Program-made: the position numbers and the translations under genes
Notes under the pieces: generated by a model
Told to the model about the DNA's origin: nothing
Databases searched by the model: none
What the model saw: the letters and a program-made list of their open reading frames with translations, nothing else
NCBI GenBank assembly: GCA_963847185.1
Contig: CAWJYV010000008.1
Span: forward strand, 320,001-384,000
Length of the DNA: 64,000 nt
Direction: 5' to 3'
From: an uncultured Methanosarcinaceae archaeon
GTDB lineage: Archaea > Halobacteriota > Methanosarcinia > Methanosarcinales > Methanosarcinaceae
Shown: in pieces, positions 9,063-27,939 of the stretch
Numbering within the stretch: the stretch's first letter is position 1
Layout: the number at the start of each line of letters is the position of its first letter

Positions 9063-10082
9063 TTGCACGGCAGTGGGGGGAGTGATTCATTCATGACGGC
9101 GAATGTCATAGAAGTAAATAATCTTGAGCACAGTTATGGCGATTTAAAAGCTGTAGATAATATCAGTTTCACCGTAAAGGAAGGGGAAATATTTTCATTT
9201 CTAGGTCCGAATGGAGCGGGTAAGAGTACTGTAATAAATATTCTCACTACACTTCGGAAAATCCAGAAAGGTGAGGCTAAAGTTAATGGTTATGATGTGG
9301 CAAAGGAATCAAAGCATGTAAGAAAATCAATAGGTATTGTTTTTCAGATGATGTGCCTTGATTATGAAATGACTGTATGTGAAAATCTTGAGTATCATGG
9401 AAAGATATACTCAATGCCAAAAGAAGAAAGAAGAAAAAGAATAAACGAACTTCTTAAATTAACTGAACTGGAAAGTAAAAGGAATACTCTTGCTAAAGAC
9501 TTAAGTGGGGGCATGAAACGAAGGCTTGAACTTGCAAGAGGATTAATGACAAAACCTGCAGTTCTTTTTCTTGATGAGCCGACGATAGGTTTTGATATCC
9601 AGACCAGATTAAGAATGTGGGAATATTTGAGGGAGATTAAGAGAGAAGGCACAACCATATTCATGACCACTCATTATATGGAGGAAGCCGATCAGCTCAG
9701 TGACAGGATCAGTATTATTGATCATGGGAAAATCATTGTAACCGGGAGTGCATTGGAGTTAAAAAATCAGCTTGGAAAAGACCTTCTTTATCTGGAAACT
9801 AGTGATAATAAAGCTGCTGCAGAAGTTTTGAAGACTATCGAATCGGTAACTGGAGTAACTGATGACTCTAAATCCCTAAGGATAATGCTTGGGATAGATG
9901 TCACACATGTACTACCGAAAATTATAGACAGTATCAGGCAAAAAGGGATAGAGATCATAACAGTAAATATCAAAAAACCTTCTATGGATGATGTTTTCGT
10001 TCATTATACAGGGCATGATTTAAGAGAAGGCGGAACACAGGAAAAGCATGAAGGAGACGAAATTATGGAGGCATTGAAATGA
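9063..10082 (+). CDS. ABC-2 type exporter ATP-binding subunit (DrrA-like)
   Basis: GPNGAGKS, LSGGMKRR, FLDEPT, TTHYMEEA; likely start at MTANV. Confidence 0.95.
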   Translation: MHGSGGSDSFMTANVIEVNNLEHSYGDLKAVDNISFTVKEGEIFSFLGPNGAGKSTVINILTTLRKIQKGEAKVNGYDVAKESKHVRKSIGIVFQMMCLDYEMTVCENLEYHGKIYSMPKEERRKRINELLKLTELESKRNTLAKDLSGGMKRRLELARGLMTKPAVLFLDEPTIGFDIQTRLRMWEYLREIKREGTTIFMTTHYMEEADQLSDRISIIDHGKIIVTGSALELKNQLGKDLLYLETSDNKAAAEVLKTIESVTGVTDDSKSLRIMLGIDVTHVLPKIIDSIRQKGIEIITVNIKKPSMDDVFVHYTGHDLREGGTQEKHEGDEIMEALK

Positions 10083-10915
10083 GCTTTGCGTTCCAAGCGA
10101 TATACTGGAGAGAAATGGTAAAGTTTTTTAGATTCAAATCCGTGCTCCTCAGTTCATTGATTCAGCCTGTGATGTGGCTGGCATTTTTTGGGCTTGCAAT
10201 GTCAGATAGTTTTGATAAATTAACTTCCATGATACCAAGCATTCCCGGTGTTCCAAACGTGGATTATCTTTCCTATATGGGTGCTGGAATAATTGCAATG
10301 GACGTGCTCTTTGCCAGCCTTTTTGGGGGTACTAATCTCTTATTTGATAAGAAATATAGTCTATTAAAAGAGACTATTGCAAGTCCTATCTCACGAGTTA
10401 ATATCATCCTAGGGGTTGGGCTTTCCGCTGTGACGAAATCTTTCATCCAGACGGCTATCATTATCGGATTTGGAGGACTGATTGGTATGAATTTCTTTAA
10501 GGGATACACTCCTGTTCAAACCCTTATATCAGTCGTGGGTATATTTGTACTGGTTGGAATTTTTACATTGGGATTCCTCTTCCTTTCAGGATCAATTGCT
10601 ATTACGGTTGATCAACCCGAAGGAATGCAGTCCATACTTACCTTTATTAGTATGCCATTATTTTTTGTGAGCAATGCACTTTATCCTGTCGATGGATTTC
10701 CTGAATTTATCAGGATCCTGTCGGTGTTTAATCCATTATCTCTCCTGGCAAACGGAGTTCGCTATTTCGCGTTAGGAACTAACTTCTCTGTAATGGGTAC
10801 CCATTACATTTATACGACAGCGGATATTGCCTTTTCATTTGTAGGACTAATAGTCTTTGCTCTCACAATGTTATCCGCCGTACTCTGGAGATTAAATAAA
10901 GTGAATATTTCTTAA
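10079..10915 (+). CDS. ABC-2 type exporter permease (DrrB-like)
   Basis: About six TM segments, NPLS motif, overlaps ATPase stop. Confidence 0.92.
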   Translation: MSFAFQAIYWREMVKFFRFKSVLLSSLIQPVMWLAFFGLAMSDSFDKLTSMIPSIPGVPNVDYLSYMGAGIIAMDVLFASLFGGTNLLFDKKYSLLKETIASPISRVNIILGVGLSAVTKSFIQTAIIIGFGGLIGMNFFKGYTPVQTLISVVGIFVLVGIFTLGFLFLSGSIAITVDQPEGMQSILTFISMPLFFVSNALYPVDGFPEFIRILSVFNPLSLLANGVRYFALGTNFSVMGTHYIYTTADIAFSFVGLIVFALTMLSAVLWRLNKVNIS

Positions 10916-11203
10916 TTTTCACTTTATTTTCTTCGGTCGTGGACATGAGTTATTGAAAACTGTAAGCATAAGAATCTCTCCATATTTCTCTCAAATACGG
11001 AAGACATACTCGCTTTTCGGAATTGATCAATAACCCGCGTACACAACCTTTTTTCTTAACTCCTGCTTTTATATGTCTTATTTCTGAAGATTACCTGCTT
11101 TACAGGTAGCTTTTTATTTAATATTTTATTTCTCTTTAGGTTCGATTTGTTTTCAGTTTGCTCATTACTAGTGATGATATTTTGATATTTAATTTTTAAA
11201 TAA

Positions 11204-11265
11204 ATTTATTCAGTCGGTTGCCCCGCTAGCTTGCTGTGGGATGCGCCAGCGCAACTTTGATTTTT
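11204..11265. repeat. Short GC-rich palindromic element resembling Methanosarcina IS-end/interspersed repeats
   Basis: ccccgctagcttgctgtggga-tgcgccagcgca hairpin-like island in AT-rich DNA; family assignment from memory only. Confidence 0.35.
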
Positions 11266-13229
11266 CAGAATATATTCTTCTAAGTGTTTCTAGAAGGTGG
11301 ATTTGCTGCATGGCTTAATAAAAACGAACTTTTTAAAAACTTTGGCTGCAATTGTATATTTTGAAAAAGTAACTTTTATTACTTTTCTGCATGCTGACTG
11401 AAAAAGACAATGCCAGTGTCATTGAACTTAAAGCCTCAACTCCTAAAGTCTATCATAAATATAAAGAAGCACATATCTCAGGAGCGATCTTTTGGAAATG
11501 CATCTCCACTTTGTAGTGATTAAAATAACAGGACTACCCTGTTTTAAATGGATATAGGCCGCTTCTGAGGTCATCTGCGCTGAATCTGAAGGCAATTCTG
11601 AAGGATAGTTTGAAGAATAGACCTTTTGCCTGAGACAAGCTCAATTGTACTGTTTATGCTATGAATCTAATTATTACAAGCTTTAAAGACACTCCATTGT
11701 GATCAGTTGATACTTTAAGGGACCTATATCCTTGCGCAGACCTAATGTCTGTTTATTTAAGTAATCCCATCTCTTTCGCATGTCTTTTTCTCCCTTTTCT
11801 GAGATCCATTATTATCTTGTCTCAAAGTCAAATTTCTTAAAAGAATATTATCACAGAACTTTGCCATATCTGGAATGCAAACTGGTTTTGACTATGAAAG
11901 GTGTTTATATGTAACTTTTATTAACCTAGCTGTAAGCACCTTTTTTAGATATGATATAAGTCAAGGTCATCTCTCATTATACGGTTGATGTTTTCATGGT
12001 TAATTTTCCGATGTAGAAATGCTTATATTTTGTGCATTAAAGCACGTCTACTATAACACACTGAATCATCTTACCAAACTGCAAAAAAGATATGATGCGA
12101 CACTAGGAGTGTTTTGGGATATAACATCAACCAACTAATAGTGCACGATCAAAGTCAATTATAACTCGAAATAAAGTGCAAAGCGCTTATATCCAGACTT
12201 ATTCTACTTCGCCATTAAAATAGTAATTTAAGGACTGAAATTACTTATGAAAATTATTACCTTCTATATTTTTACTGACACTCTACGTCAATTTTCTAAC
12301 ATATAATTTTCTTAATATATAACCTTATATATTCTCAAAAGCATCTGATTTCAGTGTTCTCTCTTTCTCGTTTTTAATATCTAATTATATCTAATAAAGT
12401 AAAGTTTATTCCTAAAGTACATAATATTATAGGGTTTACTAATGGCTCTCGGTGCGTTTTTATGGTGACGAAATATGGAGCCAAAAGTACAAGACTTTTA
12501 GATTTCGATTTTAAAGTTTCAAGCGTAAACATGATTAAGAAAAATAAATTTAAATAAAGATAAGAATTAATTGGAATGTTAAATTTGAAGGAAAAAAACT
12601 CTTCTCCATGATAGTTGGATTGCACATGATGGAGAAATCCCAGGATCTGCATTTGTTGGATGATTCGAGGTCTGATATTTCGTAAAAAAAAAGATACTTG
12701 CAAAATAAATATATGATCTTCTTTATCTATAATTCTAGGACTATTTTCTGCTTTTTTTAGTAAAATCATTCATTTTAGTACCTATAAATTAATTAAGCTG
12801 ATAGATTGAGTTTATTTTTTCCTTTTATCATTTAATTTTTCCTATTTTGCCAAAAAAAAGGTTAAAGACTTTCTTTTATATACAATTTAAAATAATTTCT
12901 GAAATATTTCTTTATTTTGGAAGTGCTTCCTCTTTTTCCCGATAAATAGTTCCTGATTTTCGGAACTATTTAGTGATAAGTAAAAATTATTCTATATGCT
13001 TTATATAAATTAAAGATATATGTTTATATATACTCATCTGCAAGGAAATATTTAGATATGTTAATCCAAAAAAGTAATACCTCATTGTAATATATTTTTG
13101 GATCTGAATTGTAGTGAGTATCGCATATTTGTGGGAATATAATACATTGGTATAGAAAACATATGTATATGTTTTCTCAAAGGTTGCGAAAAAGGAATAA
13201 TCAGAGATAAAACTTTAGGGAGGGATATA

Positions 13230-13322
13230 ATGTTTGCATATGATTTCTTTGTGAACTTTGCTTTGATTTCAGCATACAAAGCAACAGTCTGTGCACAGAT
13301 TACCCAAGTAATTGTCGGGTAA
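13230..13322 (+). CDS. Micropeptide family A1, 30 aa MFAYDFFVNFALISAYKATVCAQITQVIVG
   Basis: SD gggaggg upstream; paralog of the three following ORFs. Confidence 0.8.
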   Translation: MFAYDFFVNFALISAYKATVCAQITQVIVG

Positions 13323-13404
13323 ATTAGATGGATAATAAGGAATTCACTCTCGAAGGATTTCCATTGTATTGTAGTGAGAACTATATTGAAAGGGGGAAAA
13401 TCAA

Positions 13405-13497
13405 ATGTTTGCATACGATTTTTTTGTTAATGTGGCTCTGATTAAAGCATACAAAGCAAAAGTTTGTGCAGAGATTACCCAAGTAATTATCGGGTAA
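13405..13497 (+). CDS. Micropeptide family A2, 30 aa MFAYDFFVNVALIKAYKAKVCAEITQVIIG
   Basis: SD aggggg; synonymous and conservative changes versus A1. Confidence 0.8.
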   Translation: MFAYDFFVNVALIKAYKAKVCAEITQVIIG

Positions 13498-13577
13498 ATT
13501 GAGACAAATAATAAGGATTCATTCTAGAAGATTTTACCATATTAAAATAGAGAATATACTGAAAGGAGGAAAATTAA

Positions 13578-13679
13578 ATGTATTGGTTTTCACAGGACTT
13601 TTTTGTTAATCTGGCCCTAGTTGACGCATACAAAGCAAAAGTTTACGCAGGAATTACACAGGTAATCGTCGAATTATAA
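13578..13679 (+). CDS. Micropeptide family A3, 33 aa MYWFSQDFFVNLALVDAYKAKVYAGITQVIVEL
   Basis: SD aggagg; in-frame length variation relative to A1/A2/A4. Confidence 0.8.
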   Translation: MYWFSQDFFVNLALVDAYKAKVYAGITQVIVEL

Positions 13680-13714
13680 GATTCACGTAAATAAACTTAA
13701 AGGAGGAAAATCAA

Positions 13715-13807
13715 ATGTTTGCATATGATTTCTTTGTCAATATAGCCCTGGTTAAAGCATGCAAGGCACAAGTTTACGCAGGAATTACCCAGGTAATCAT
13801 CGGATAA
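13715..13807 (+). CDS. Micropeptide family A4, 30 aa MFAYDFFVNIALVKACKAQVYAGITQVIIG
   Basis: SD aggagg; followed by hairpin at 13836-13858. Confidence 0.8.
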   Translation: MFAYDFFVNIALVKACKAQVYAGITQVIIG

Positions 13808-13835
13808 ATTAAAAAATACAAAAAATTGAATTGAG

Positions 13836-13858
13836 AGTTGCCTGTTTTACATGCAACT
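13836..13858 (+). terminator. Hairpin agttgcctgttttacatgcaact followed by T-run
   Basis: Imperfect inverted repeat; related copies at 14090, 14329 and 16061. Confidence 0.5.
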
Positions 13859-13984
13859 TTTTGGGTCTATAAAACAGTTTCAGTGGTTGCCTCTTAAAGA
13901 TATAATGGACAATCTCCTGGATTCGTTTGTCTTTAATTGGCGACCAATTAATCTATAGAGTTATAAATAAATGGGGGAAAAGTA

Positions 13985-14077
13985 ATGATAGTTTTACCAT
14001 CAATAAATATAAACATGGCGTGGGTATTCGTAATTCTTTCCAAGAATATCGGCGTTTTCATAAATCAGAATATCTAA
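13985..14077 (+). CDS. Micropeptide family B1, 30 aa MIVLPSININMAWVFVILSKNIGVFINQNI
   Basis: SD ggggg; differs from B2 mostly at third codon positions. Confidence 0.75.
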   Translation: MIVLPSININMAWVFVILSKNIGVFINQNI

Positions 14078-14089
14078 TTTAAATTAAAA

Positions 14090-14112
14090 AGTTGCATGTT
14101 TTGCATGCAATT
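14090..14112 (+). terminator. Hairpin gttgcatgttttgcatgcaa after B1
   Basis: Inverted repeat just downstream of stop codon. Confidence 0.5.
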
Positions 14113-14227
14113 CTTAGGCCGTAGTAATCTAATAGATATTCTAGATATGGACAAATCTCTGGATTCATTTGTCTTTAACTGATGACCAATTAATCCATAC
14201 GTTTAGAAAGAAATGGAGGGAGAAATA

Positions 14228-14320
14228 ATGATAGTCTTACCATCAATAAATATAAACATGGCATGGGTATTCGTAATTCTTTCAAGGAATATCGGCGTTT
14301 TCATAAATCAAAGCATCTAA
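14228..14320 (+). CDS. Micropeptide family B2, 30 aa MIVLPSININMAWVFVILSRNIGVFINQSI
   Basis: SD ggaggg; GTT/GTC, GCG/GCA, TCC/TCA, CAG/CAA synonymous changes versus B1. Confidence 0.75.
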   Translation: MIVLPSININMAWVFVILSRNIGVFINQSI

Positions 14321-14328
14321 ATTTAATG

Positions 14329-14355
14329 AAAGTTGCATGTTTTGCATGCAACTTT
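14329..14355 (+). terminator. Hairpin aaagttgcatgttttgcatgcaacttt after B2
   Basis: 11 bp inverted repeat plus T-run. Confidence 0.55.
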
Positions 14356-15066
14356 TTAGGTCGTAGTAATCTCAATAGCCATATCTTCTAGTATAATGGA
14401 CAAATTCCCTGGATTCATTTATCTAGAGTTGATGGCTATAGATTCTCTATTTACTTTCATGGCTTAGTTTTTTATCTTTCTCTGCGTTCACTAGACTTTT
14501 ATTCAATTAGATACAATTTTAAGGCTGTTATTTTGTCCTCTGGCGTGTTTCAAGATTGTATCAATATAATATTGTACTCGTTAAATATAATGTCTAATGA
14601 AATACAAATAAGAAACTGACATTAAAATGCAGTTAGTTAATTCGTTTTTTTCTTTGCCTATTTGCTGGTCGAAATTTCTCTATTTAATCCTACTATTTAT
14701 ATATACATATTTGCAAAATTAATCATGTCATAGCAGATAACCAAAACGTAAAGTAATGAAAAAATATAATTTTACACTTGAATAGTCTTCTACTTAAAGG
14801 TGAATATCTAAATTGAAATAAATTCAAAAATAGAAATTCAGTATGAGTCAGAAAAGTACTTCTCAAAGTATCCAAAGTTAGTATTAATAGCTTAATTTCA
14901 AATCTTTTAATTATTGTGTGTTTAATTTTTATATTCGAAATATCTATTAATCGAGTTATTTGGATACCTGAGTAGTTGTCAAAAGTTACTTGTGTATATT
15001 TAGGCGTTTTGGCATTTTAATCCAATTTTGGTGATATAATTAACTTCTCAACAATTTATTCTATTC

Positions 15067-15174
15067 TTATAAATGTCTGAAATTCCTCAGAGAGTTTCCT
15101 CCGATTTGTATGAATTTTATGCGTATAATCTGGATCATAATATTAATCTTTGTGTAACTGAAGTAAAGGAACAT
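15067..15174 (-). CDS. Divergent family C-like micropeptide, 35 aa MFLYFSYTKINIMIQIIRIKFIQIGGNSLRNFRHL
   Basis: SD ggggag 8 nt upstream; ungapped alignment to family C (F5, Y7, K/R-F/Y-I-Q at 20-23). Confidence 0.55.
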   Translation of the reverse strand: MFLYFSYTKINIMIQIIRIKFIQIGGNSLRNFRHL

Positions 15175-16060
15175 ATAATCTTCTCCCCTTGTTTAATATA
15201 TCTCTTTTCATTTGTTTTAGTGCTTTCTTCTAATTGATAAATTGGATTTAAGATCCCCACATTATTTTTCTTTTTTTCACAATCGCTATTGCATCTCTAT
15301 TAGATCTTTTTAGTGATGTGTTAATCTTTTTAATCAACTCCTTATTAGATTACTACTCTTCGACATGTTTCTTGAAACTATGGTAAGTTCAAACTGCTAA
15401 ATTTATTTTGAATCAAATCATGGGCATCTTTTTCATTTGAGTCTGATAATTCTAATTGTCTAATCGAAGAGTTTCTATATACAGTTATATCATTAATTTA
15501 TATGTACTGTAGAGAACAATTACTCCTTACAATTTATAGTGTTTAAATATTTGAATACAGAATTCCTGCAGAGAAAAAAATTTTAAAATTTATTTTTTAA
15601 AAAATTAATAAATACATAGAATTTATATGTCTTTTTTGTTCTGCAATAATGTTAATTATGCGAAAATATTCGGGATGAAAAGTAAAGAATTAATGAAGAG
15701 AATCTTTATCTATAATCTAAAGTTAAATAAGAATATAAATTCGAAATATATAGGTGCAAGGGATAGCTCCCTCTATATTTTATGGAGTTATAAAAATTAC
15801 TTTAATTTATATTTCTCTAAGTAAAATTAATATTTTATAGGCTAACCAAGATATGTTCACTCTTTTCGAAGATATTTTAGTCTCGTCTTTTTATATAGTT
15901 CGCATCCCTGTCTAAATGTTGATAGTTTGTATATTCTTGAGGTTTATTTCATAGCCCAAAATCAGTGTGTTGAGAAGCAAACTTTTTAGTTTTTAAAATA
16001 AGTAATTCATTTAATATGTTTTTATTTATATATCTACATATTAATATATGTAGAAATTTA

Positions 16061-16085
16061 AAGTCGCCTGTTTTGCGGGCGACTT
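16061..16085 (-). terminator. Hairpin aagtcgcctgttttgcgggcgactt at the end of the minus-strand micropeptide array
   Basis: Variant of the 13836/14090/14329 hairpin with compensatory stem changes. Confidence 0.55.
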
Positions 16086-16182
16086 CTTAATTTCTATTGT
16101 TGCGCATTGTCTATGATTATGAGTTATGCCACAAGCTTATGACTTATTTTATTCTCTCATAAATCTCTCTCATCTTGAGGCT

Positions 16183-16260
16183 TTAATCGCACTGAATGTA
16201 TCTGAACCATGTCTTATCAAAGGTCTTACTTACACAAAGATATTCAAACAGGATGGACAT
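16183..16260 (-). CDS. Micropeptide family C, 25 aa MSILFEYLCVSKTFDKTWFRYIQCD
   Basis: SD ggagg; last of ten paralogs in transcription order. Confidence 0.82.
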   Translation of the reverse strand: MSILFEYLCVSKTFDKTWFRYIQCD

Positions 16261-16341
16261 TGAAACTTCCTCCATTATCTTTTTATCTGTTAGTCAGTTT
16301 TATTCATTAAGTTTCAATTAAATTTTAACCAGCTAATTTGG

Positions 16342-16419
16342 TTAAAATTCGAAGCAGAACTCTATACCAAGGCCTGCAACAGCTTTAAATAAGTTGGAAA
16401 GGTTAAATACAAATATCAT
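16342..16419 (-). CDS. Micropeptide family D, 25 aa MIFVFNLSNLFKAVAGLGIEFCFEF
   Basis: SD ggagtgggg; stop codon lies within an 11 bp hairpin arm. Confidence 0.78.
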   Translation of the reverse strand: MIFVFNLSNLFKAVAGLGIEFCFEF

Positions 16420-16464
16420 TTTATCCCCACTCCTTTTGGTTTTCTGGCGCTGAATTTGTGTATC

Positions 16465-16539
16465 TTAACACTGAATGTATCTGAACCACTCAAGGTTGTA
16501 AGTCTTACTAACACAGAGATATTCAAACAGGATGGACAT
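16465..16539 (-). CDS. Micropeptide family C, 24 aa MSILFEYLCVSKTYNLEWFRYIQC
   Basis: SD gaggga; paralog. Confidence 0.82.
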   Translation of the reverse strand: MSILFEYLCVSKTYNLEWFRYIQC

Positions 16540-16596
16540 TGGAACTCCCTCTACTCTTTATTTTACTTGCGAATTTAACAACTCAGTTTTTATATC

Positions 16597-16671
16597 TTAA
16601 CACTGAATGTATCTGAACCACTCGAGGTTGTAGGTCTTGCTAATGCACAGGTATTCAAACAGTATGGACAT
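16597..16671 (-). CDS. Micropeptide family C, 24 aa MSILFEYLCISKTYNLEWFRYIQC
   Basis: SD ggggga; many synonymous changes versus the neighbour. Confidence 0.82.
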   Translation of the reverse strand: MSILFEYLCISKTYNLEWFRYIQC

Positions 16672-16755
16672 TTAAATCTCCCCCATTCTTTTTATGTGTA
16701 TTTTAGTCAGTTTTTATTAATTAAGTTTCAATTAAATTTTAACCAGCTAATTTGG

Positions 16756-16833
16756 TTAAAATTCGAAGCAGAACTCTATACCAAGGCCTGCAACAGCTTT
16801 AAATAAGTTGGAAAGGTTAAATACAAATATCAT
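16756..16833 (-). CDS. Micropeptide family D, 25 aa MIFVFNLSNLFKAVAGLGIEFCFEF
   Basis: SD ggagtgga; 414 bp from previous D copy. Confidence 0.78.
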   Translation of the reverse strand: MIFVFNLSNLFKAVAGLGIEFCFEF

Positions 16834-16877
16834 TTTATCTCCACTCCCTTTTGGTTTTCTGTCATTTAATTTGTGTT

Positions 16878-16952
16878 TTAACACTGAATGTATCTGAACC
16901 ATGTCATGTTAAAGGTCTTACTAACACAGAGATATTCGAACAGTATGGACAT
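16878..16952 (-). CDS. Micropeptide family C, 24 aa MSILFEYLCVSKTFNMTWFRYIQC
   Basis: SD aaggga; paralog. Confidence 0.82.
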   Translation of the reverse strand: MSILFEYLCVSKTFNMTWFRYIQC

Positions 16953-17010
16953 TTCGATTCCCTTTACTCTTTATGTCGCTTGTGAACTCAACTGATTTAA
17001 TCTCGATCTC

Positions 17011-17085
17011 TTAACACTGAATGTATCTGAACCACTCGAGGTTGTAGGTCTTGCTAATGCACAGGTATTCAAACAGTATGGACAT
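17011..17085 (-). CDS. Micropeptide family C, 24 aa MSILFEYLCISKTYNLEWFRYIQC
   Basis: SD aggaga; 414 bp from the 16671 copy. Confidence 0.82.
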   Translation of the reverse strand: MSILFEYLCISKTYNLEWFRYIQC

Positions 17086-17169
17086 TTAAATCTCTCCTAC
17101 TCTTTTTATGTTTATTTCAGTAAGTTTTTATTCATTAAGTCTCAATTAAATTTTAACCAACTAATTTGG

Positions 17170-17247
17170 TTAAAATTCGAAGCAGAACTCTATACCAAGG
17201 CCTGCAACAGCTTTAAAGAAGTTGTTAAGGTTAAATACAAATATCAT
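17170..17247 (-). CDS. Micropeptide family D, 25 aa MIFVFNLNNFFKAVAGLGIEFCFEF
   Basis: SD ggagtgga; two substitutions versus the other D copies. Confidence 0.78.
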   Translation of the reverse strand: MIFVFNLNNFFKAVAGLGIEFCFEF

Positions 17248-17293
17248 TTTATCTCCACTCCCCTTTGGTTTTTTGTCATTTAATTTGAGTATC

Positions 17294-17368
17294 TTAACAC
17301 TGAATGTATCTGAACCATGTCATGTCAAAGGTCTTGCTAACACAGAGATATTCAAATAGTATGGACAT
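17294..17368 (-). CDS. Micropeptide family C, 24 aa MSILFEYLCVSKTFDMTWFRYIQC
   Basis: SD ggaggg; paralog. Confidence 0.82.
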   Translation of the reverse strand: MSILFEYLCVSKTFDMTWFRYIQC

Positions 17369-17412
17369 TTCAATTCCCTCCTCTCTTTATGTCGCTTACG
17401 AGTTCAACTAAG

Positions 17413-17537
17413 AGCCTATCCGAAAAATGTTGTGAGCTACTGTAACTTTTGAAAGTGACAATATACACAACTTCACTAGCACTCGATAATATGACTCGTA
17501 ACTTCTCGAGATGCATTAATGACTTTTCGGATAGGCT
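17413..17537. mobile_element. 125 bp MITE inserted between two family C genes
   Basis: Perfect 14 bp TIR agcctatccgaaaa / ttttcggataggct; absent from homologous spacers of the array. Confidence 0.75.
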
Positions 17538-17555
17538 TCATTCATTTCCCGCAGT

Positions 17556-17633
17556 TTAGCAGCACTGAATGTATCTGAACCATGTCATGTTAAAGGTCTT
17601 GCTAACACAGAGATATTCGAACAGTATGGACAT
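17556..17633 (-). CDS. Micropeptide family C, 25 aa MSILFEYLCVSKTFNMTWFRYIQCC
   Basis: SD ggaggg; extra in-frame TGC codon. Confidence 0.82.
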   Translation of the reverse strand: MSILFEYLCVSKTFNMTWFRYIQCC

Positions 17634-17691
17634 TTCAATTCCCTCCACTCTTTATTTTACTTGCTAATTCAACTAACTCAATTTTTAGATC

Positions 17692-17766
17692 TTAGCACTG
17701 AATGTATCTGAACCATGTCATGTTAAAGGTCTTGCTAACACAGAGATATTCGAACAGTATGGACAT
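17692..17766 (-). CDS. Micropeptide family C, 24 aa MSILFEYLCVSKTFNMTWFRYIQC
   Basis: SD ggaggg; part of identical 133 bp tandem units. Confidence 0.82.
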   Translation of the reverse strand: MSILFEYLCVSKTFNMTWFRYIQC

Positions 17767-17824
17767 TTCAATTCCCTCCACTCTTTATTTTACTTGCTAA
17801 TTCAACTAACTCAATTTTTAGATC

Positions 17825-17899
17825 TTAGCACTGAATGTATCTGAACCATGTCATGTTAAAGGTCTTGCTAACACAGAGATATTCGAACAGTATGGACAT
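17825..17899 (-). CDS. Micropeptide family C, 24 aa MSILFEYLCVSKTFNMTWFRYIQC
   Basis: SD ggaggg; part of identical 133 bp tandem units. Confidence 0.82.
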   Translation of the reverse strand: MSILFEYLCVSKTFNMTWFRYIQC

Positions 17900-17957
17900 T
17901 TCAATTCCCTCCACTCTTTATTTTACTTGCTAATTCAACTAACTCAATTTTTAGATC

Positions 17958-18035
17958 TTAGCAGCACTGAATGTATCTGAACCATGTCATGTTAAAGGTC
18001 TTGCTAACACAGAGATATTCGAACAGTATGGACAT
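17958..18035 (-). CDS. Micropeptide family C, 25 aa MSILFEYLCVSKTFNMTWFRYIQCC
   Basis: SD ggaggg; first C copy in transcription order. Confidence 0.82.
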   Translation of the reverse strand: MSILFEYLCVSKTFNMTWFRYIQCC

Positions 18036-18118
18036 TTCAATTCCCTCCACTCTTTTACTTTCTCTTTGCTTAATTTTGCCGTCAATTTAGACTGGATTCT
18101 AATCTAAACCATTTTTAG

Positions 18119-18190
18119 TTATTTGAAGTAGATTTGTACACCAAGGCCTGCAAATGCATTAAAGAAGTTTTTAATATTAACGAATAGCAT
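18119..18190 (-). CDS. Divergent family D micropeptide, 23 aa MLFVNIKNFFNAFAGLGVQIYFK
   Basis: SD gggaggg; shares NFF.A.AGLG core with family D; first gene of the minus-strand array. Confidence 0.75.
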   Translation of the reverse strand: MLFVNIKNFFNAFAGLGVQIYFK

Positions 18191-19970
18191 TTTCTCCCTC
18201 CCCATTTTGCATTTTTCCATGCTTATACATTCTCTTTTTCTATCCTTTTTGTATATTTTCAATAGAAAATACACTTATCAGGAATATTTGTACGAGGCTT
18301 TTTCTTAATCCCCTCGGTCGTTAATACCACTCTGGCAAATATCTTTTTATTATTAGGCGTTAATCTTTCGTTTTGGCCTCAAAAAGCCTAACTTTTGCTC
18401 GCCAGTGAGTGTATCTAACTATCTATACTAAATTATATAAGCCCTATAGAACTAATAATTCTTATAAATAATAGTCTTTGAACTTTTTAGAATATTTATC
18501 TAAGATAAATAATATATATTTATATAAAATTTTCATTTATTTCTACTATTCATAATTTGAATACGTCGTTGACTTCCATTATACAAGGATAAAGATAAAT
18601 TATCCTATTAATTAATCAATATTAAAGTTTAATATTAAATATCATACTTAGATTCTATTTTTTCTTTTATTATCTTTTTTTGTCCATATCAAATACTTTT
18701 TACAGGATATTTACTTATCTCGAGTTACTTCTTTGTCCAACAGATTTCTAAATTTTTTGCCAATATTTTGCGAATTTTGGTTTTTTCTTTACTATTTTCT
18801 TTCCAATTAAATATCTTAGAGTGATAATTTTAGATAGTGAATATATCGCTAAAATATCAGTTTACTTTCTATGGGTAGGTTATGAATAAATCCCTGTTTT
18901 GTTCTACCAAACTATTTTGATAAAATATATTGCCTTATGTCATGAAAAGTGTCTCTTATTTTTGATTCTCGGTACTCAGTAGTATTTTTATCCAAGTTAC
19001 TTTTCTTCTCTTTAATCTCTTTATCTTTTATTTTTGCTGTTGAAAAACCATATGTTTTTTGTCAGGAATACTTTCATAGGTGCCCTTTCTTCAGATGGAT
19101 TTTAAAAAAGAATCTTGCAGGGAGTTCAGTAACTCAAAAACTTTGACTTAAAAACAGTAAAAAAGGGAACTCTTCTCCTCTTTCTAAACACTTGGGTAAA
19201 AGCATAATACTTATTTTACAGATCGAAAGTAGTTGCCATTACAGATCTCTAATTTATTTTCTTTTTTCTTACAAAAAGGAATTTATTTGGTGGGGAATTT
19301 CTCCAAAAAGGCAGTGTAGCGAAAGTTCTGTAAAATCACAAATCTCAAGAAGTTCCTTGGACGAAAATACCGTTTCAGAAGAATCTAATTTCATATTGTG
19401 AGAAAAAATTGACTTCATATTTACAGCAAATTTGCGACACTGCTTTTGATATTTCAGGTCATATAATAGTGTGTTCTTAAATTTATTCATCCTATAAAAT
19501 ATAAGTCAATATATATCATTTTCCTAACACGAATGTGTCTACATTACTAACCAGCAAAAAAGAAAAAAATATAATCAGTAATCGAAAATTAATGAAAATT
19601 AATTCATAGACGTTTATTCATTAGATATTAAGAAAGATAACAGTTTAAGTTGGTTCTCTCATTTGATGAATTGTTACTAATATAATTCTTAAAAATTAAG
19701 CTTTATTTCGTTCTATTAATCTTTTTTAGCGTTATCATGATCCTTTTTTTTATATAATGTAATTTTTATGTGTTTTTTGATTAAATGAGCTTCAATTATG
19801 CATTTATCGAGTAAATAAACATCTAAATTCTTTAGTTTATACTCATATTTCGGATAACTCTTTAAAAAAATTTAGAGAGAATAGGTTAAAATGGATTTTC
19901 TTACAATAAGAAGAAGTAAAGAGAATTGAGATTATCCTTATAATTTTTTTCTCATTATATCTCAGTTACT

Positions 19971-20690
19971 TTGGGGGGGAATATGGATATAATCAACGAC
20001 AGTTTACCTGAGGGTGGATTTCCTATTGTCGAACTTTCCAACGTCAGGAAGAGTTATTTACTTGGAAATCTGGAAGTTCCGGTTCTCTCGGATATTAACC
20101 TTAAAATAGGTGTGGGAGAGTTTCTCGCTATTATGGGTCCATCGGGCTCAGGGAAAAGTACACTTATGAACCTTATAGGTTGCCTTGACCGACCTACTGA
20201 AGGTCAGGTGCTTATAAGAGGAAGCGATCTCCAGAGAATGTCAGACAAAGAACTTGCCCGCTTAAGGGGGCTTGAAATAGGTTTTGTTTTTCAGAATTTT
20301 AATCTGGTTCCGCGCCTGACGGCTCTTGAGAACGTCTTGCTCCCTACTTTTGCAAATTCGAGAATTAGTACTGATCCAGTAAAGCGTGCAAAAGAGCTCC
20401 TTGAAACTATGGGGCTGCAGGATCGTATGCACCATAGGCCAGGGGAACTTTCAGGAGGCCAGGCTCAAAGAGTCTCAATAGCAAGGGCGCTTATTAATGA
20501 CCCTGCTATTCTTCTTGCGGATGAACCGACCGGAAATCTTGACTCCAGGACCGGAGCTGAGATTCTTAGAATACTTATGAATCTGAATACCGAAGGAAGA
20601 ACGATAATAATAGTTACACACGACTCTGAAATTGCTAAGTATGCTGATCGAGTCGTTCTGGTGAAGGATGGAATAATCCAGTTTAATTAA
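19971..20690 (+). CDS. ABC transporter ATP-binding protein (LolD/MacB/SalX type)
   Basis: GPSGSGKS, LSGGQAQR, LLADEPTGNLD, VTHD; likely start ATG 19983. Confidence 0.95.
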   Translation: MGGNMDIINDSLPEGGFPIVELSNVRKSYLLGNLEVPVLSDINLKIGVGEFLAIMGPSGSGKSTLMNLIGCLDRPTEGQVLIRGSDLQRMSDKELARLRGLEIGFVFQNFNLVPRLTALENVLLPTFANSRISTDPVKRAKELLETMGLQDRMHHRPGELSGGQAQRVSIARALINDPAILLADEPTGNLDSRTGAEILRILMNLNTEGRTIIIVTHDSEIAKYADRVVLVKDGIIQFN

Positions 20691-20702
20691 AGGTGGGATC
20701 AT

Positions 20703-21950
20703 ATGGAAATAGTTAAAAAGAATGTTGTTGCTTTTTTTTCTTTACTTTTGGTTTTCTCTTCACTTGCAATTCCTGCTTCTGCAGATGTTGGAAGTGCAAG
20801 CCTTAAAATTACAATAATCGAAACAAATCCCTATCCTGCAAAGATAGGGGAATACTTAAACCTTACATTACAGGTGGAAAATGTTGGGCAGGATAAAGCT
20901 GGTAATGTTGACATAGAAGTTATTCCTAAGTATCCTTTCTCTCTTGATCCTGGGATGAATCCCATTCAAAACGTTGGGGCACTCAACCCAGGCAGGACTG
21001 CAACGAAAGAATTCTATCTTTTTGTGGACAAAAACGCTCAGAAAGGAATCCGCTCCCTTGACATCCGGGCAAGAGCCGATAAAGGCAGTCCATGGAGCGA
21101 GAAAAGCTTTGATATAAGGGTCGGTACTCAAACATATAATAGTAAAGGTACAGTTGAACTTGAGAATGTTGTTTCGAACCCAGATATTTTCATGCCTGGA
21201 GATCGGGGCACTGTTACAGTAACTCTCAAGAATACCGCAACCACTCCGACTGTCACCATTGATGAGAGTAGTTATGATACCAATGCCAGAATTCAGTCAG
21301 CCGTTTTAGAGCCATTATCTGATGAGATAATCGTACTTGATTCTCCATATGAAGAAATGGGTATTATAGGGCCTGGAGATAGTATCAAATTAACTTTCAA
21401 CGTTAGGGTTGCAGAGAATGCCATGGATGGGAATCACAACCTTGAATTAGCAATAGAGGGCAATTCTTTCGATTACAATAGCAAAAAGAATATTCCTCTT
21501 AAGGTCGACTCTTCAAATATAAAGGTGATCCCTTCAAAAGCACTTCAGCTTGTCAATGGACAATCTACAATCGAATTTGATGTGGCAAATACCCATCCTA
21601 ACGAGCTTAACTCAGTAAGCATAAAACCTGAAGCTGAGGGTGTGAAATTTTATCCTGCAGAATATTTCATAGGGCCAATGGATCCGGATGAGCTTTTTAC
21701 TGTCGAATTTGATGCTGTAAAAGATAATTCTTCGGGTTTCACGGAAGATTCAGGTAAAATAAACATGAGCCTTACTGCAAATTATAACAATGGAATTAAC
21801 AGGCACGCAAATGTCATCGGGAATCTTAATCTTGCAGACGATTCCGAATCCTCCGAATCAAATTCAACATCCGTAATAGCAGGTGGACTTGTTATTATTT
21901 CTGTTCCTGCGGCCTTTCTGTATTACAGAAGAAAAAAAGCAGCGAGATAA
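20703..21950 (+). CDS. COG1361-like cell-surface protein (signal peptide, Ig-like domains, C-terminal TM anchor)
   Basis: N-terminal signal peptide, C-terminal hydrophobic helix plus RRKK; lies inside the ABC operon. Confidence 0.85.
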   Translation: MEIVKKNVVAFFSLLLVFSSLAIPASADVGSASLKITIIETNPYPAKIGEYLNLTLQVENVGQDKAGNVDIEVIPKYPFSLDPGMNPIQNVGALNPGRTATKEFYLFVDKNAQKGIRSLDIRARADKGSPWSEKSFDIRVGTQTYNSKGTVELENVVSNPDIFMPGDRGTVTVTLKNTATTPTVTIDESSYDTNARIQSAVLEPLSDEIIVLDSPYEEMGIIGPGDSIKLTFNVRVAENAMDGNHNLELAIEGNSFDYNSKKNIPLKVDSSNIKVIPSKALQLVNGQSTIEFDVANTHPNELNSVSIKPEAEGVKFYPAEYFIGPMDPDELFTVEFDAVKDNSSGFTEDSGKINMSLTANYNNGINRHANVIGNLNLADDSESSESNSTSVIAGGLVIISVPAAFLYYRRKKAAR

Positions 21951-21981
21951 ATTAACTGATATCATATTTGTGGGGTAAAAT

Positions 21982-23193
21982 ATGATCAGATTTGCGCAGG
22001 CAACTCGAATTGCTTTGGGGAGTATAGGAAGTGCTAAGCTTAGGTCATCACTTACTACACTTGGAATAGTGATTGGCATAGCTGCAGTAGTTGTTAATGC
22101 ATCTCTTGGTGCCAGTTTCAATCAGTTTTTTACTAATGAAATTTCTTCTGTTGGCTCAAACTTTATTATCACGTACAGCAATCAACCCAATATTTTCTTC
22201 GACAACGAGTACAATTTAATGAAAAGTACCCAGGGGATTACCGGTGTGTCTCCCAGAAAATCGATGACTGGAGAGCTAACCTATCTTTCGGAAACTAATA
22301 CCGTAAACATTGCAGGGGTTAATGAGGATTTTCAGGAAATTCAGGGCTTAAAGATGGAAAGAGGCAGTTTCCTGACAAATAAGGATATTAACTCTGCAGT
22401 TTTAGGGTACAACCTGGCAAATGATGAGTTTAGCAGGGATATATCTCACAGAAGCACCGTGGAAATTGCTTTTCGACAAGAAAACGGTACCGTTGTAACG
22501 AAGACATTTAAGGTAAAAGGGATTCTGCAAAATTCCAAGCCAACTGTTATTAGTGAAGATAGCGATTATGATTTGACCGTCTTTATCCCAATTTCTACTA
22601 TGAATGAAATGATAGGAGAAGAGGATTATGGAACTTTTCTTGCAATGACGGATAGTCCTGATAAAGTCCGTAATGTCGCAGAAAAAGTGGATGATAGATT
22701 AGCACGGAATTTTGGGATCTCAGAAAGGGTTGATGATGAAGATTCAAAACCTTATACTGTTTTTAATCAGGCAGATGTGCTTGAGGAAACTGGGAAATTG
22801 GGCGATTCATTAAGCTCTTTCCTTCTGGTCCTTGCCTCAATTTCACTTTTTGTTGGCTCCATAGGGATTATGAACATTATGCTTGTAACAGTTACGGAAC
22901 GTACAAGAGAAATTGGTATAATGAAATCTGTGGGATACAGCAACTCTAATATCCTCTCTCTTTTCCTGCTGGAGTCTATAATGGTCAGTTTCCTTGGAGG
23001 AGTTGTAGGTACAACTATTGGGGGTTTAGGGGCCTATATCCTTGAAAGTGCTCTTAAACTTCCTCCAGTATTTCCTTTTAAATTGATTGAAATAGGGGTG
23101 ATAGTTTCGATTCTTGTGGGGGTAACTGCTGGTTTGTATCCTGCAAAAAAGGCAGCTCATATGAATCCTGTAGATGCTTTAAGGTACGAGTGA
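21982..23193 (+). CDS. MacB/FtsX-like ABC permease
   Basis: LRSxLTxLGIxIG, GIMNIMLVTVTERTREIG, PVDALRYE motifs. Confidence 0.95.
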   Translation: MIRFAQATRIALGSIGSAKLRSSLTTLGIVIGIAAVVVNASLGASFNQFFTNEISSVGSNFIITYSNQPNIFFDNEYNLMKSTQGITGVSPRKSMTGELTYLSETNTVNIAGVNEDFQEIQGLKMERGSFLTNKDINSAVLGYNLANDEFSRDISHRSTVEIAFRQENGTVVTKTFKVKGILQNSKPTVISEDSDYDLTVFIPISTMNEMIGEEDYGTFLAMTDSPDKVRNVAEKVDDRLARNFGISERVDDEDSKPYTVFNQADVLEETGKLGDSLSSFLLVLASISLFVGSIGIMNIMLVTVTERTREIGIMKSVGYSNSNILSLFLLESIMVSFLGGVVGTTIGGLGAYILESALKLPPVFPFKLIEIGVIVSILVGVTAGLYPAKKAAHMNPVDALRYE

Positions 23194-23660
23194 ATCTATT
23201 ATTTCAATAGATTTATTCTGCTGAAGGGTACACCCCTTATTTTTATTCTTTCTTTTTAGTCTATCTGGCTAAATTGGTATCAGTAAAATAACTTTAAGTA
23301 ATTTCTCAGTTATTGATTTTCATATTATTCTTATGTCTATAGATGAATATTTATTTATGTCTATAGATGAATATTTATGATAGTTTGACAGAAAGTTAAT
23401 ATTTACATTTTTCAGCATGTTGAAAAATATCACTGACGATCTGATTGACAATTTGGCCACTTTTACTATTCCTCTGACTTTAGCCGAAAAGGGTTTTTAT
23501 GGAGCTTGTTAAAGAGACTGAAGTTAGAAGAAATCAAAACCTTGGAAGTATGGTGATCAGAACGCAACAAAGGAGGATTCAAAGACGGGAACTAAAAAAC
23601 ATAAGAATCAGACGTTCCATAATGTACGGATAATTCAGATACAGATAACTTAGTTCTAAT

Positions 23661-24572
23661 ATGAAAAACAATAGAGGGGTAGACATGGAAATTAAAATGG
23701 CCACTGACAAAGCATCTGCTCCCGGCAATTCTGCTCCCAAAACAGAAACCGATTCGATACCTGAGGGGAAAATGGCTCATAATGAAAGCCAATTTGTCTC
23801 AAACGAAGATTCAAGTGATGAGCCCTTTAAATATGAATTATACCGCACAAAAAATCTGCATAGAAGGATGGAGGGAAGGGATAAAACAAGAGCTTCGGTT
23901 ATTGAAGTTATCAATGTCAAAAAAAGTTATTTCCTTGGAGATACGGAAGTTCCGATTCTTCGAGATATTAACTTAGAAGTGTTTGAAGGGGAATTTCTTG
24001 CTATCATGGGTCCTTCTGGCTCTGGAAAGAGTACATTAATGAATCTCATTGGTTTTCTTGACAGGCCTACAGAAGGTAAAATTATGATTAAAGGCCTCGA
24101 TGTCAATAAGCTGTCTGATAAGGAAGTTGCTAGACTCAGGGGATTGGAAATAGGTTTCGTGTTCCAGATTTTCAACCTAATCCCACGGCTTACCGCTCTT
24201 GAAAATGTTGAGTTGCCTACTTATGCAAATGTGAGAAATGGGGTTGATGTTCGCAAAAGGGCAAAGGAGCTTCTAGAACAGGTTGGCCTGGATGACCGTA
24301 TGCATCATAAGCCAGGTGAGCTTTCAGGTGGACAATCTCAAAGGGTTGCAATCGCCCGAGCTCTAATTAATGATCCTGCAATTCTTCTTGCGGACGAACC
24401 CACAGGAAATCTTGACTCAAAAACAGGATGTGAAATCCTGAACATGTTCACAAAACTCAACGAAGATGGCAGAACCATTGTAATGATTACCCACGATCCA
24501 GAAATTGCAAAATATGCAGACAGAATAGTGCTCGTAAAAGATGGAATCATTCAGAATAATCCCAATAGTTAA
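23661..24572 (+). CDS. ABC transporter ATP-binding protein (LolD/MacB type) with N-terminal extension
   Basis: Close paralog of 19971-20690; start uncertain. Confidence 0.9.
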   Translation: MKNNRGVDMEIKMATDKASAPGNSAPKTETDSIPEGKMAHNESQFVSNEDSSDEPFKYELYRTKNLHRRMEGRDKTRASVIEVINVKKSYFLGDTEVPILRDINLEVFEGEFLAIMGPSGSGKSTLMNLIGFLDRPTEGKIMIKGLDVNKLSDKEVARLRGLEIGFVFQIFNLIPRLTALENVELPTYANVRNGVDVRKRAKELLEQVGLDDRMHHKPGELSGGQSQRVAIARALINDPAILLADEPTGNLDSKTGCEILNMFTKLNEDGRTIVMITHDPEIAKYADRIVLVKDGIIQNNPNS

Positions 24573-24608
24573 GTTTCAAAATTTTAAGCTAATCAGGGTG
24601 AACCCAGA

Positions 24609-25865: not shown

Positions 25866-26149
25866 ATAACTCAAAATATATTACTCAATGATTAAATTTG
25901 TTAAGAGCTTAGTGGATATGTATTTCGGGAATGTTTCTCCTGAAGTATCCCGATAATTTCAGATTGTGCCTTCCACTACGCTCATTTTTTACAGGGTTAT
26001 ACAGGTCATCACTATTGTGCTTTTAACATAGATTTCTCAATGAAAGGGCTGTCCTCCCCAGATTTAACTATTACTTTATATAGTTGATTTCTAATGAATG
26101 ACGCTTTAGTTTTTTACTCTTTATTTTCTTTCTGAGGAGGTCTTTCTTT

Positions 26150-27502: not shown

Positions 27503-27939
27503 TAATGCGTTTTCAATAGCTCACAACCGGGTTTCATACATAGGCTTGCACTTTTTCTATGATATATCACTAGCATATATAAGAAATATACCAATTTATA
27601 CTGTTTGTACAGTTCTTCAGGATTTTAACAAATTAGTCATACAAACTATCAAATGGTGAGTATCTAATAAAATTCTATTATTAGATCTGCTTAATCATTA
27701 TTTTTCTCTAAAGGTTTAGAAATCCATTAAAAGTGGCTATAATATCAGGCTATCACAAAAGTTCTATGATTATTTTTTACCGTTATTTATTATATCTTTG
27801 AGATTAATATTTATTGGGGTTTTTGGGAACTTTCTGTGTCTATCTTAGTTTTACGCAGTTTACGCGCTAAAGCCTGAAGTCCAATTTACACAGGAGCTCA
27901 AGCAGTTTTAGAGCATTCATATGTATAACAGATGATTTT

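Follow-up and report, generated by a model that had tools for sequence, protein, structure and literature searches.

Tandem micro-peptide genes form a probable genus-wide operon module in Methanosarcina

A window of 64,000 nucleotides (nt) from the genome of an uncultured Methanosarcinaceae archaeon (genome G000; contig CAWJYV010000008.1, positions 320,001 to 384,000) carries an array of 14 very small genes on its minus strand, at positions 16183-18190. The array peptides are of two kinds, denoted C and D, and have 23 to 25 residues; ten genes are of type C, three of type D, and one, D', is of a D subtype. Our comparisons indicate that the region is a genuine polycistronic operon of micro-peptide genes, with chance open reading frames (ORFs) and a non-coding repeat disfavoured, and the array very probably represents a coding, co-located module found across the genus Methanosarcina. 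This genus is a main model of methanogenesis and a major producer of methane in sludge, soils and sediments. The array genes are below the size reported by gene callers, yet their position is conserved across the genus and they are under purifying selection.

Architecture of the array

Read from position 18190 downward, the genes follow the order D'-C5-D-C2-D-C2-D-C, and a gene for a third peptide type, E, lies about 1 kb further downstream. A profile-based listing and an ORF listing gave the same gene table, reproducing the order D'-C-C-C-C-C-D-C-C-D-C-C-D-C and the counts (10 C, 4 D-type) of the original prediction, which had been made from the DNA letters. The interval proposed at that time, 16320-18190, accommodates most of the array and misses its last C gene. 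The first gene, then taken for a divergent D, is more than a divergent copy: it belongs to a conserved subtype of 23 residues, D', that heads the amplified arrays of three genomes (G000, G024 and G061).

The D' gene, at 18119-18190, was recognised as an ORF with an upstream ribosome-binding motif. It is followed by five C genes, at 17958-18035 (25 residues), 17825-17899 (24 residues), 17692-17766 (24 residues), 17556-17633 (25 residues) and 17294-17368 (24 residues). D gene copy 1 (17170-17247) precedes C genes 6 and 7 (17011-17085 and 16878-16952), D gene copy 2 (16756-16833) precedes C genes 8 and 9 (16597-16671 and 16465-16539), and D gene copy 3 (16342-16419) precedes C gene 10 (16183-16260), the last of the array. 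The three D copies and C gene 10 encode 25 residues each, C genes 6 to 9 encode 24, and C genes 6 and 8 represent a second C subtype. All of the C and D genes were found both as ORFs and with the profiles, and those from C gene 8 to C gene 10 are in addition covered by contigs from RNA libraries. Start-to-start spacings are 119-162 nt, except for a single step of 265 nt that spans an inserted repeat. The G+C content of the array is 0.34, and no ORF of at least 90 codons is present between 13.4 and 20.0 kb.

Coding potential of the C and D genes

Four genomes yielded 48 C-type genes, with 39 unique sequences, and 19 D-type genes, with 12, for which we compared all reading frames. The C frame is open in 39 of 39 sequences, and each other frame is closed in 9 to 38 of them. 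The ratio of nonsynonymous to synonymous differences (pN/pS) in the C frame is 0.39 overall and 0.26 between G000, G024 and G061; in the other five frames it ranges from 0.60 to 1.30. The D frame is similarly open in 12 of 12 sequences with a pN/pS of 0.51, as against 0.65-1.23 in the other five. Because one antisense D frame is open in 10 of the 12 sequences, the coding result is weaker for D than for C. No conservation signal was detected for the antisense frames in the pN/pS and frame tests.

Start codon, stop codon and peptide length are kept at DNA identities down to about 70%, and all tabulated C, D and E genes have a purine-rich ribosome-binding motif upstream. A search of positions 10000-21000 against Rfam gave no match. 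These analyses of sequence argue with high confidence that the C family is protein-coding, and with good confidence that the D family is as well. One C gene of the G061 array (locus L066, 12783-12860) starts with TTG rather than ATG, with its ribosome-binding motif and frame intact.

A D-C-E module across the genus

We searched for relatives of the array in 59 genomes of Methanosarcina and in 225 genomes from 30 other genera of the order. A DNA search in 40 relatives identified arrays in G024 alone, most other matches being to the inserted repeat. Narrow C profiles detected the family in 4 of the 59 genus genomes and in 6 of the 284 genomes of the order, with two of the six marginal, and there was no credible match with these profiles elsewhere in the order outside the genus. 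All four genus genomes have D-type genes inside or at the head of their C arrays; in the strongly diverged G059, each of three loci consists of one D followed by three or four C.

The patchy distribution suggested by the narrow profiles proved wrong, because diverged homologues were found in the syntenic gap of six complete genomes that had scored negative, and because a broad C profile raised the count to 31 of the 59 genus genomes, with 0 of 225 in the other genera. In the profile-negative genomes, the two operons for ATP-binding cassette (ABC) transporters that flank the array, of the ABC-2 and MacB types, still lie 4-5 kb apart. The gap between them has the same D-C-E architecture in all six complete genomes. 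Its first gene is Phe-rich and D-like, with a GTG start in two genomes; two to four tandem C-like genes of 25 codons follow, whose products align without gaps to the C peptides of the window, and an E-type gene for 32-44 residues, homologous to the window ORF at 15067-15174, completes the set. The 28 genus genomes without a broad-profile match may hold more diverged arrays, may have them unassembled or may truly lack them. Arrays do break assemblies, as the contig of the closest relative, G009, ends within the neighbouring arrays of two further peptide families, A and B.

The arrays differ in extent between genomes. The second locus of G000 reads D-C-C, and those of G024 read D'-C-C (to a contig end), C-D-C, C-D-C and D'-C3-D. 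G061 has D-C5 and the long array D'-C6-D-C-D-C-D'-C-C-D-C, G059 has D-C3-E, D-C4 and D-C3, and the six other genomes have D-C2-4-E. Of 19 C-bearing loci in 10 genomes, 17 have a D-type gene within the array, 16 of them recognised by profile and one, in G012, by position and composition only. The original prediction that D and C form a pair is borne out at the level of the genome, and D is found in homologous C arrays rather than being absent from them. Because D accompanies C in 17 of 19 loci, the two are an obligately linked pair.

The two loci without D are orthologous single genes for C variants with one extra residue, at 3148-3228 of L034 (G000, contig 10) and 3648-3728 of L067 (G061). The former adjoins a gene for an HrcA-like winged-helix/CBS regulator, and a similar regulator flanks a C-D-C array of G024 (L032).

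The gene counts had further been read as a 10:4 stoichiometry set by gene dosage. C equals or outnumbers D in every D-bearing locus, and in its widespread form the array has a single D ahead of two to four C, but the C:D ratio per locus varies from 1:1 to 5:1. The 10:4 ratio is thus a snapshot of a drifting copy number, and the stoichiometric reading was not retained.

The E gene of the window (15067-15174, minus strand) encodes 35 residues. E lies downstream of C in 8 of 8 core loci, that is, those located between the two ABC operons, and the relatives of its product on record are only annotated as "hypothetical protein" of Methanosarcina. The ancestral module would have consisted of one very hydrophobic, Phe-rich D-type peptide (23-29 residues, with beta-strand periodicity) encoded first, two to four aromatic-rich C-type peptides (24-26 residues) and then a separately placed E-type peptide (32-44 residues).

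In G059, the D-C3 array on contig 54 (L070) adjoins genes for two Gly/Cys/Tyr-rich proteins of 49 and 56 residues (1173-1322 and 2383-2553, minus strand). At its N-terminal end, the 49-residue protein resembles the C-type peptides of other genomes, as if a C head were fused to an E-like glycine-rich tail. Neither protein gave a meaningful family match in NCBIfam or Pfam.

Tandem amplification and an inserted repeat

Two repeat spacings, of 133 nt and 414 nt, run through the array of the window. The neighbouring 133-nt units of C genes 2 and 3 are 100% identical. The three D genes had been described as near-identical, and the 130-nt segments that comprise each D gene and its 3' hairpin indeed share 95.4-98.5% identity. 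These segments arose by recent tandem duplication, and the three hairpins therefore count as one observation rather than three. In the window, the module has been amplified through tandem duplication of 133-nt C units and of a 414-nt D-C-C unit; it has also received a small palindromic repeat, and satellite copies are present elsewhere in the genome. Whatever the peptides do, the array is a clear natural example of how tandem amplification of micro-genes alters gene dosage.

The wide gap between C genes 4 and 5, not remarked upon in the original prediction, corresponds to a palindromic insert of about 148 nt (17405-17552, no strand assigned) that resembles a miniature inverted-repeat transposable element. 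It folds as a single long hairpin (-47.6 kcal/mol, z -5.3), and similar copies are present at nine other places in G000 and in 23 of 24 other genus genomes sampled. Within the operon transcript, this repeat would form a large hairpin.

A lineage-specific hairpin at the D stop codon

Each D gene of the window ends in a stem of 12-13 pairs (11 Watson-Crick pairs plus G-U), with the stop codon in the 5' arm. The inverted repeat over the D stops had been noticed earlier, and folding substantiated it as a stem that 0 of 200 dinucleotide shuffles matched in stability. The stem-loop of D copy 1 (17148-17178, minus strand) has a predicted energy of -13.1 kcal/mol (z -4.06, 0/200 shuffles), and when only its non-coding arm was shuffled, 0 of 500 sequences were equally stable. 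That of D copy 3 (16320-16350, minus strand) reaches -10.6 kcal/mol (z -3.39, 0/200 shuffles); the stem-loop of D copy 2 (16734-16764, minus strand) has the same sequence as the latter over the range compared and was placed by the 414-nt offset.

In this arm test, the 5' coding part was kept fixed and the downstream 33 nt were shuffled, and a stem was called significant if matched by at most 5% of the shuffles. Significant stems were found at 6 of 18 unique D-type 3' ends from four genomes, compared with 3 of 43 C-gene controls. These six are the two variants of the window, the second G000 locus and three G061 copies. By the same test, no stem was significant in G024, in G059 or at any D' copy, and the D-like genes of the six other genomes gave 0 of 6. 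In total, the hairpin, to which the original prediction had given a possible part in setting the stoichiometry, is significant at 6 of 24 D-type 3' ends, and G000 and G061 account for all six. It is real and beyond chance, but it is a lineage-specific addition and not part of the core mechanism.

The last sense codons differ in G061, where another 3' arm, situated closer, preserves the stem. This retention suggests selection in the sub-lineage, although the arms are not strictly orthologous. By eye, one pair differs on both sides between the G000 and G061 stems and three differ on one side, which does not amount to formal covariation. A column-wise covariation count was dropped because indels shift the register of the stem between lineages, and per-copy shuffles were used instead. 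A role as an intrinsic terminator or attenuator was rejected, as no U run follows the D-stop stem, the terminator scan did not call it and it is significant at only 6 of 24 D-type 3' ends. Most likely, it would serve as a messenger RNA element of the sub-lineage, a 3' stabiliser or processing mark that tunes the yields of the segments.

Operon boundaries and RNA-library contigs

The 230 nt upstream of D' (18191-18420, minus strand) form a conserved leader with 78% mean column identity among G000, G061 and two G024 loci. A block shared across the genus lies just downstream of a TATA-like sequence, 210-230 nt before the first D codon. This segment is the probable promoter region. A scan for bacterial promoters found fewer sites than in shuffled sequences; such a scan is unsuited to archaea. 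At the other end, a G+C-rich, terminator-like stem of 11 pairs at 16061-16085 folds on the minus strand with -18.9 kcal/mol (z -5.4). The array is probably read from the conserved leader and promoter upstream of the first D-type gene to this stem. T-rich tails are present on both strands of the stem, and it could end transcripts coming from either side.

Ten sequencing runs from seven studies, eight of them recorded as RNA, contain a small share of the sequence words of the window. Contigs from four runs were compared with positions 15000-16740, a segment that includes the 3' third of the array and avoids its near-identical repeats. Parts of 16114-16740 are covered by contigs from sludge, bioreactor and soil RNA libraries of three studies and by those of a run of uncertain type (X6). 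A 151-nt soil contig (run X3) corresponds to 16330-16480 with zero differences and spans the whole of D gene copy 3. Contigs of 200 nt and 421 nt, from runs X1 and X6, bridge D and C genes, and contigs of runs X1 and X2 cover the E gene together with about 290 nt on its upstream side (15064-15460). No contig of the four runs falls on 15000-15058 or 15472-16061, but such gaps, like the differences in depth between C and D bins, do not count as evidence. The RNA-library contigs support transcription of the array, short of proof.

Some contigs of runs X1 and X3 stop at 16320-16333, inside the hairpin, and a contig of run X6 runs through it. As a sign of an RNA end these stops are at most a weak hint, since a base difference between D copies at 16332 could equally break the assembly.

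Peptide properties and family searches

The D-type peptides are very hydrophobic, with grand average of hydropathy (GRAVY) values of 0.6-1.7. Their two-residue hydrophobic periodicity is 0.42 compared with 0.14 in shuffled sequences (0/1000 as high), and it is strongest in the C-terminal half, as for amphipathic beta strands with a Phe-rich face. The C-type peptides are 20-35% aromatic and weakly amphipathic, with a helical moment of 0.21 versus 0.18 in shuffles (15/1000 as high). Net charge is about -1 to +4 overall, 0 to +4 for C, and mostly 0 to +1 in the genome of the window. As judged by inspection, C and D both lack a conserved, unbroken run of hydrophobic residues long enough to span a membrane. 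Many copies carry a Cys near the C terminus, at positions that are not conserved across the family. The peptides have 23-26 residues and start directly at the conserved core, which leaves no room for a leader in addition to a core. Identity between C-type peptides falls to 16-32%.

None of 13 peptides searched matched a family in NCBIfam, and Pfam returned just two chance-level matches (E values of 0.09 and 0.72). These concern an A-family peptide and a Gly/Cys/Tyr-rich protein of G059, and there was none for C, D, D' or E. Among 1.84 billion representative proteins, we found one relative of C, of 30 residues; the query was a 30-residue GTG-extended reading of C, and we think that this extension is unnatural. 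The single record of a D gene is an over-extended, unnamed reading of 48 residues.

Flanking transporters

A divergent operon of the MacB type (19971-29154, plus strand) comprises genes for an ATPase, a CARDB-like protein and an FtsX/MacB permease, twice over, as assigned with Pfam. Its CARDB-like gene, which 51 of the 59 genus genomes have, lies 1.5-2.6 kb from a C array in 30 of the 31 C-bearing genomes; in the remaining one, G024, the assembly is too fragmented for placement. The second MacB-type module contains, in the opposite orientation, a gene for a MEDS-domain histidine kinase (26150-27502, minus strand); G061 instead has an IS66 transposase gene beyond its second module.

On the other side of the peptide island, a transporter of the ABC-2 type (DrrA-like ATPase and permease, assigned with Pfam) is encoded at 9063-10915 on the plus strand. 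An ABC-2 transporter is near the array in the window and at one G059 locus. A specific link between the two was ruled out: all 59 genus genomes have the ABC-2 permease, which makes it a core gene, and in G061 about 186 kb separate it from the array. The transporters adjacent to the array showed no peptidase domain in Pfam, and no tailoring enzyme, immunity gene or regulator common to the loci was found among 24 window proteins and 35 flanking proteins.

Comparison with known peptide systems

The closest analogues by organisation appear to be the phenol-soluble modulins of staphylococci and the leaderless multi-peptide bacteriocins. Phenol-soluble modulins are encoded by tandem genes for 20-45 residues that have their own ribosome-binding sites and specify no signal peptide or leader. 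They belong to the core genome of Staphylococcus, diverge fast between species, are highly expressed and use an exporter of the DrrA/ABC-2 kind, Pmt. They have been described as small, amphipathic, secreted peptides. Like the psm-alpha locus, the window holds tandem leaderless genes, 14 of them for 23-25 residues and each with a ribosome-binding motif, in a core locus of the genus that diverges fast and has an ABC transporter nearby. The array peptides differ from modulins in that they show no sequence or profile similarity to them, that C is weakly helical-amphipathic and D has a beta periodicity, and that two or three obligately linked peptide types occur in an archaeal host. In addition, the consistently adjacent transporter is of the MacB type, and ABC-2 is not always near. 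Membership in the staphylococcal PSM families was rejected on the basis of the NCBIfam and Pfam results given above.

Leaderless bacteriocins, such as aureocin A70, enterocin L50 and garvicin KS, are unmodified peptides encoded side by side that act together, with an ABC transporter nearby. They have 30-44 residues and are strongly cationic; their genes, accompanied by immunity genes, are as a rule restricted to particular strains or located on plasmids. The co-location of D and C in 17 of 19 loci and the lack of a modifying enzyme near them recall this group, but the net charge of about -1 to +4, the core locus of a genus and the lack of an immunity candidate common to the loci do not. The array peptides thus fall outside this group by charge and distribution, as they do by sequence. 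A class IIb two-peptide bacteriocin was rejected, since there is no room for a double-glycine leader and the adjacent transporters are without a peptidase domain.

Chaplins and other functional amyloids or hydrophobin-like proteins are paralogous, very hydrophobic, beta-prone short peptides that act in bulk. Chaplins have Sec signal peptides, a mature size of about 50 residues and conserved Cys pairs. D shares their beta periodicity, but the array peptides are without Sec signal peptides, the mature size of about 50 residues or conserved Cys pairs. Type I toxins such as Ibs and Ldr, for their part, have a clear transmembrane helix, and their genes occur singly, with an antisense RNA as partner. 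The array peptides resemble them in being shorter than 40 residues, very hydrophobic, present in several copies per genome and missed by annotation. They differ in that up to 16 co-oriented genes of two types form one operon, with no antisense partner seen, although the RNA-library contigs carry no strand by which antisense transcripts could be told.

The small proteins reported for Methanosarcina mazei (sP26, MtrR, MttS/MttQ and a catalogue obtained by ribosome profiling, Ribo-seq) come from the same genus, are of the same size class and were likewise overlooked by annotation, but they are single-copy regulators of enzymes or transporters. The passages searched in the M. mazei Ribo-seq paper do not mention a tandem or multi-copy peptide family, nor do those searched in a later survey. 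The M. mazei supplementary tables that were searched, one of them incomplete, contain no array-peptide motif, although the M. mazei variants may differ. A literature search on Methanosarcina small proteins, tandem or hydrophobic archaeal peptides and archaeal modulins returned no relevant paper. By analogy, the organisation, tandem leaderless peptide operons beside ABC transporters, appears to be a known one that is new to this domain of life, with no sequence relation to known families.

Possible functions of the peptides

Our leading interpretation, credible though not quite probable, is that the peptides are exported and are self-assembling or membrane-active. Synthesized with neither leader nor modification, they would be exported, or placed in the membrane, by the neighbouring ABC system. 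D and C would then act jointly as a material that self-assembles or acts on membranes; D would be its scarce partner, and C would make up the bulk. If so, this would be the first such system described in methanogens, with candidate roles in aggregate formation, syntrophic contact or antagonism. The array is directly testable in genetically tractable Methanosarcina strains.

A more specific version, which we consider possible but doubtful, is a genus-wide secreted-peptide system, the archaeal equivalent of the phenol-soluble modulins, in which D is a beta-type nucleator, C a bulk aromatic component and E a glycine-tailed peptide, all exported by the adjacent MacB-type transporter and co-assembling outside the cell into a surface-active or amyloid-like material. 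Such a material would shape aggregation, dispersal or competition in methanogenic communities. Lineages like that of the window would have multiplied the system up to 17-fold and acquired the stop-codon stem, which would tune the D:C yield.

Several observations weigh against export and assembly. There is no sequence or profile match to a known peptide family; C is weakly helical-amphipathic and D has no helical signal, unlike classical modulins; and bacteriocins are not usually encoded at a core locus shared by a whole genus. Since the flanking transporters are both core genes (59/59 and 51/59), adjacency to them could reflect inherited gene order without a functional link. Within the 2-6 kb of flanks that were scored, no transporter was present at seven satellite loci, namely five arrays and two singletons (one locus, L030, had no ORF to score). 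C-type genes were found by profile in just 31 of 59 genus genomes. Finally, the RNA-library contigs show neither strand, nor ends, nor a single transcript, and such libraries can contain DNA.

Small proteins act as transporter subunits or regulators in M. mazei and in bacteria, and the array peptides could analogously reside in the membrane, where they would serve the neighbouring ABC transporter(s), or another membrane complex, as accessory subunits or regulators. The location next to the MacB-type operon, strictly conserved in 30 of 31 genomes, and the high hydrophobicity of D are consistent with this idea, as is a preprint that reports small subunits regulating an M. mazei permease. We nevertheless regard it as unlikely: copy numbers of 10-17 and arrays far from transporters are unlike a stoichiometric subunit, C-type peptides fall to 16-32% identity while the transporter proteins remain 73-98% identical across the genus, and no conserved transmembrane-length hydrophobic stretch is seen in C or D by inspection.

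It is improbable that the arrays encode toxin-antitoxin systems of the type I kind, with D (or C) as the small hydrophobic toxin, or are selfish, addictive elements, the other peptide or an antisense RNA serving as the antidote. The fixed core position across the genus argues against this possibility, as do the many co-oriented genes with strong ribosome-binding motifs and apparently abundant RNA. No conserved antisense frame or element was seen, there was no Rfam match, and most D-type genes are without a hairpin. A toxin would, on the other hand, fit with a very hydrophobic peptide of 23-29 residues, with several loci per genome, tandem amplification and rapid divergence, and with the stable RNA fold that some D copies have across the end of the gene.

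In some classes of ribosomally synthesized and post-translationally modified peptides (RiPPs), the precursors are typically encoded by small genes present in multiple copies. The multiple small genes of the array and the Cys near the C terminus of many copies might thus evoke RiPP precursors whose tailoring enzymes are encoded elsewhere. This is highly improbable, given that 23-26 residues are too short for a leader and a core, that no radical S-adenosylmethionine, cyclase, protease or other tailoring gene is common to the scored loci, that Cys positions are not conserved and that no NCBIfam precursor model matches. The last alternative, non-coding repeats or small RNA genes with incidental ORFs, could draw on the regular 133-nt spacing, the low G+C of 0.34 and the failure of gene callers to report the ORFs, but is scarcely tenable when the proposed frame alone is open in all copies and has the lowest pN/pS, start, stop and ribosome-binding motif are kept across about 70% DNA divergence, and Rfam gives no match.

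Other genes of the window

The large genes of the window include those for an F420-dehydrogenase subunit, the MEDS-domain histidine kinase already mentioned, a RACo activase and a GGGP synthase. Two ORFs on the minus strand, at 13082-13414 (110 residues) and 12374-12769 (131 residues), have no Pfam match. The former is probably spurious, as it overlaps family-A peptide genes on the opposite strand.

Two more tandem micro-peptide families are encoded on the plus strand, at 13230-13807 (four copies of a peptide of 30-33 residues) and 13985-14320 (two copies of a 30-residue peptide), with a ribosome-binding motif for each gene. They were not seen in the syntenic gap of the six other genomes. In G009 (L092), they are represented by five copies and one copy, respectively, and the contig ends inside the arrays.

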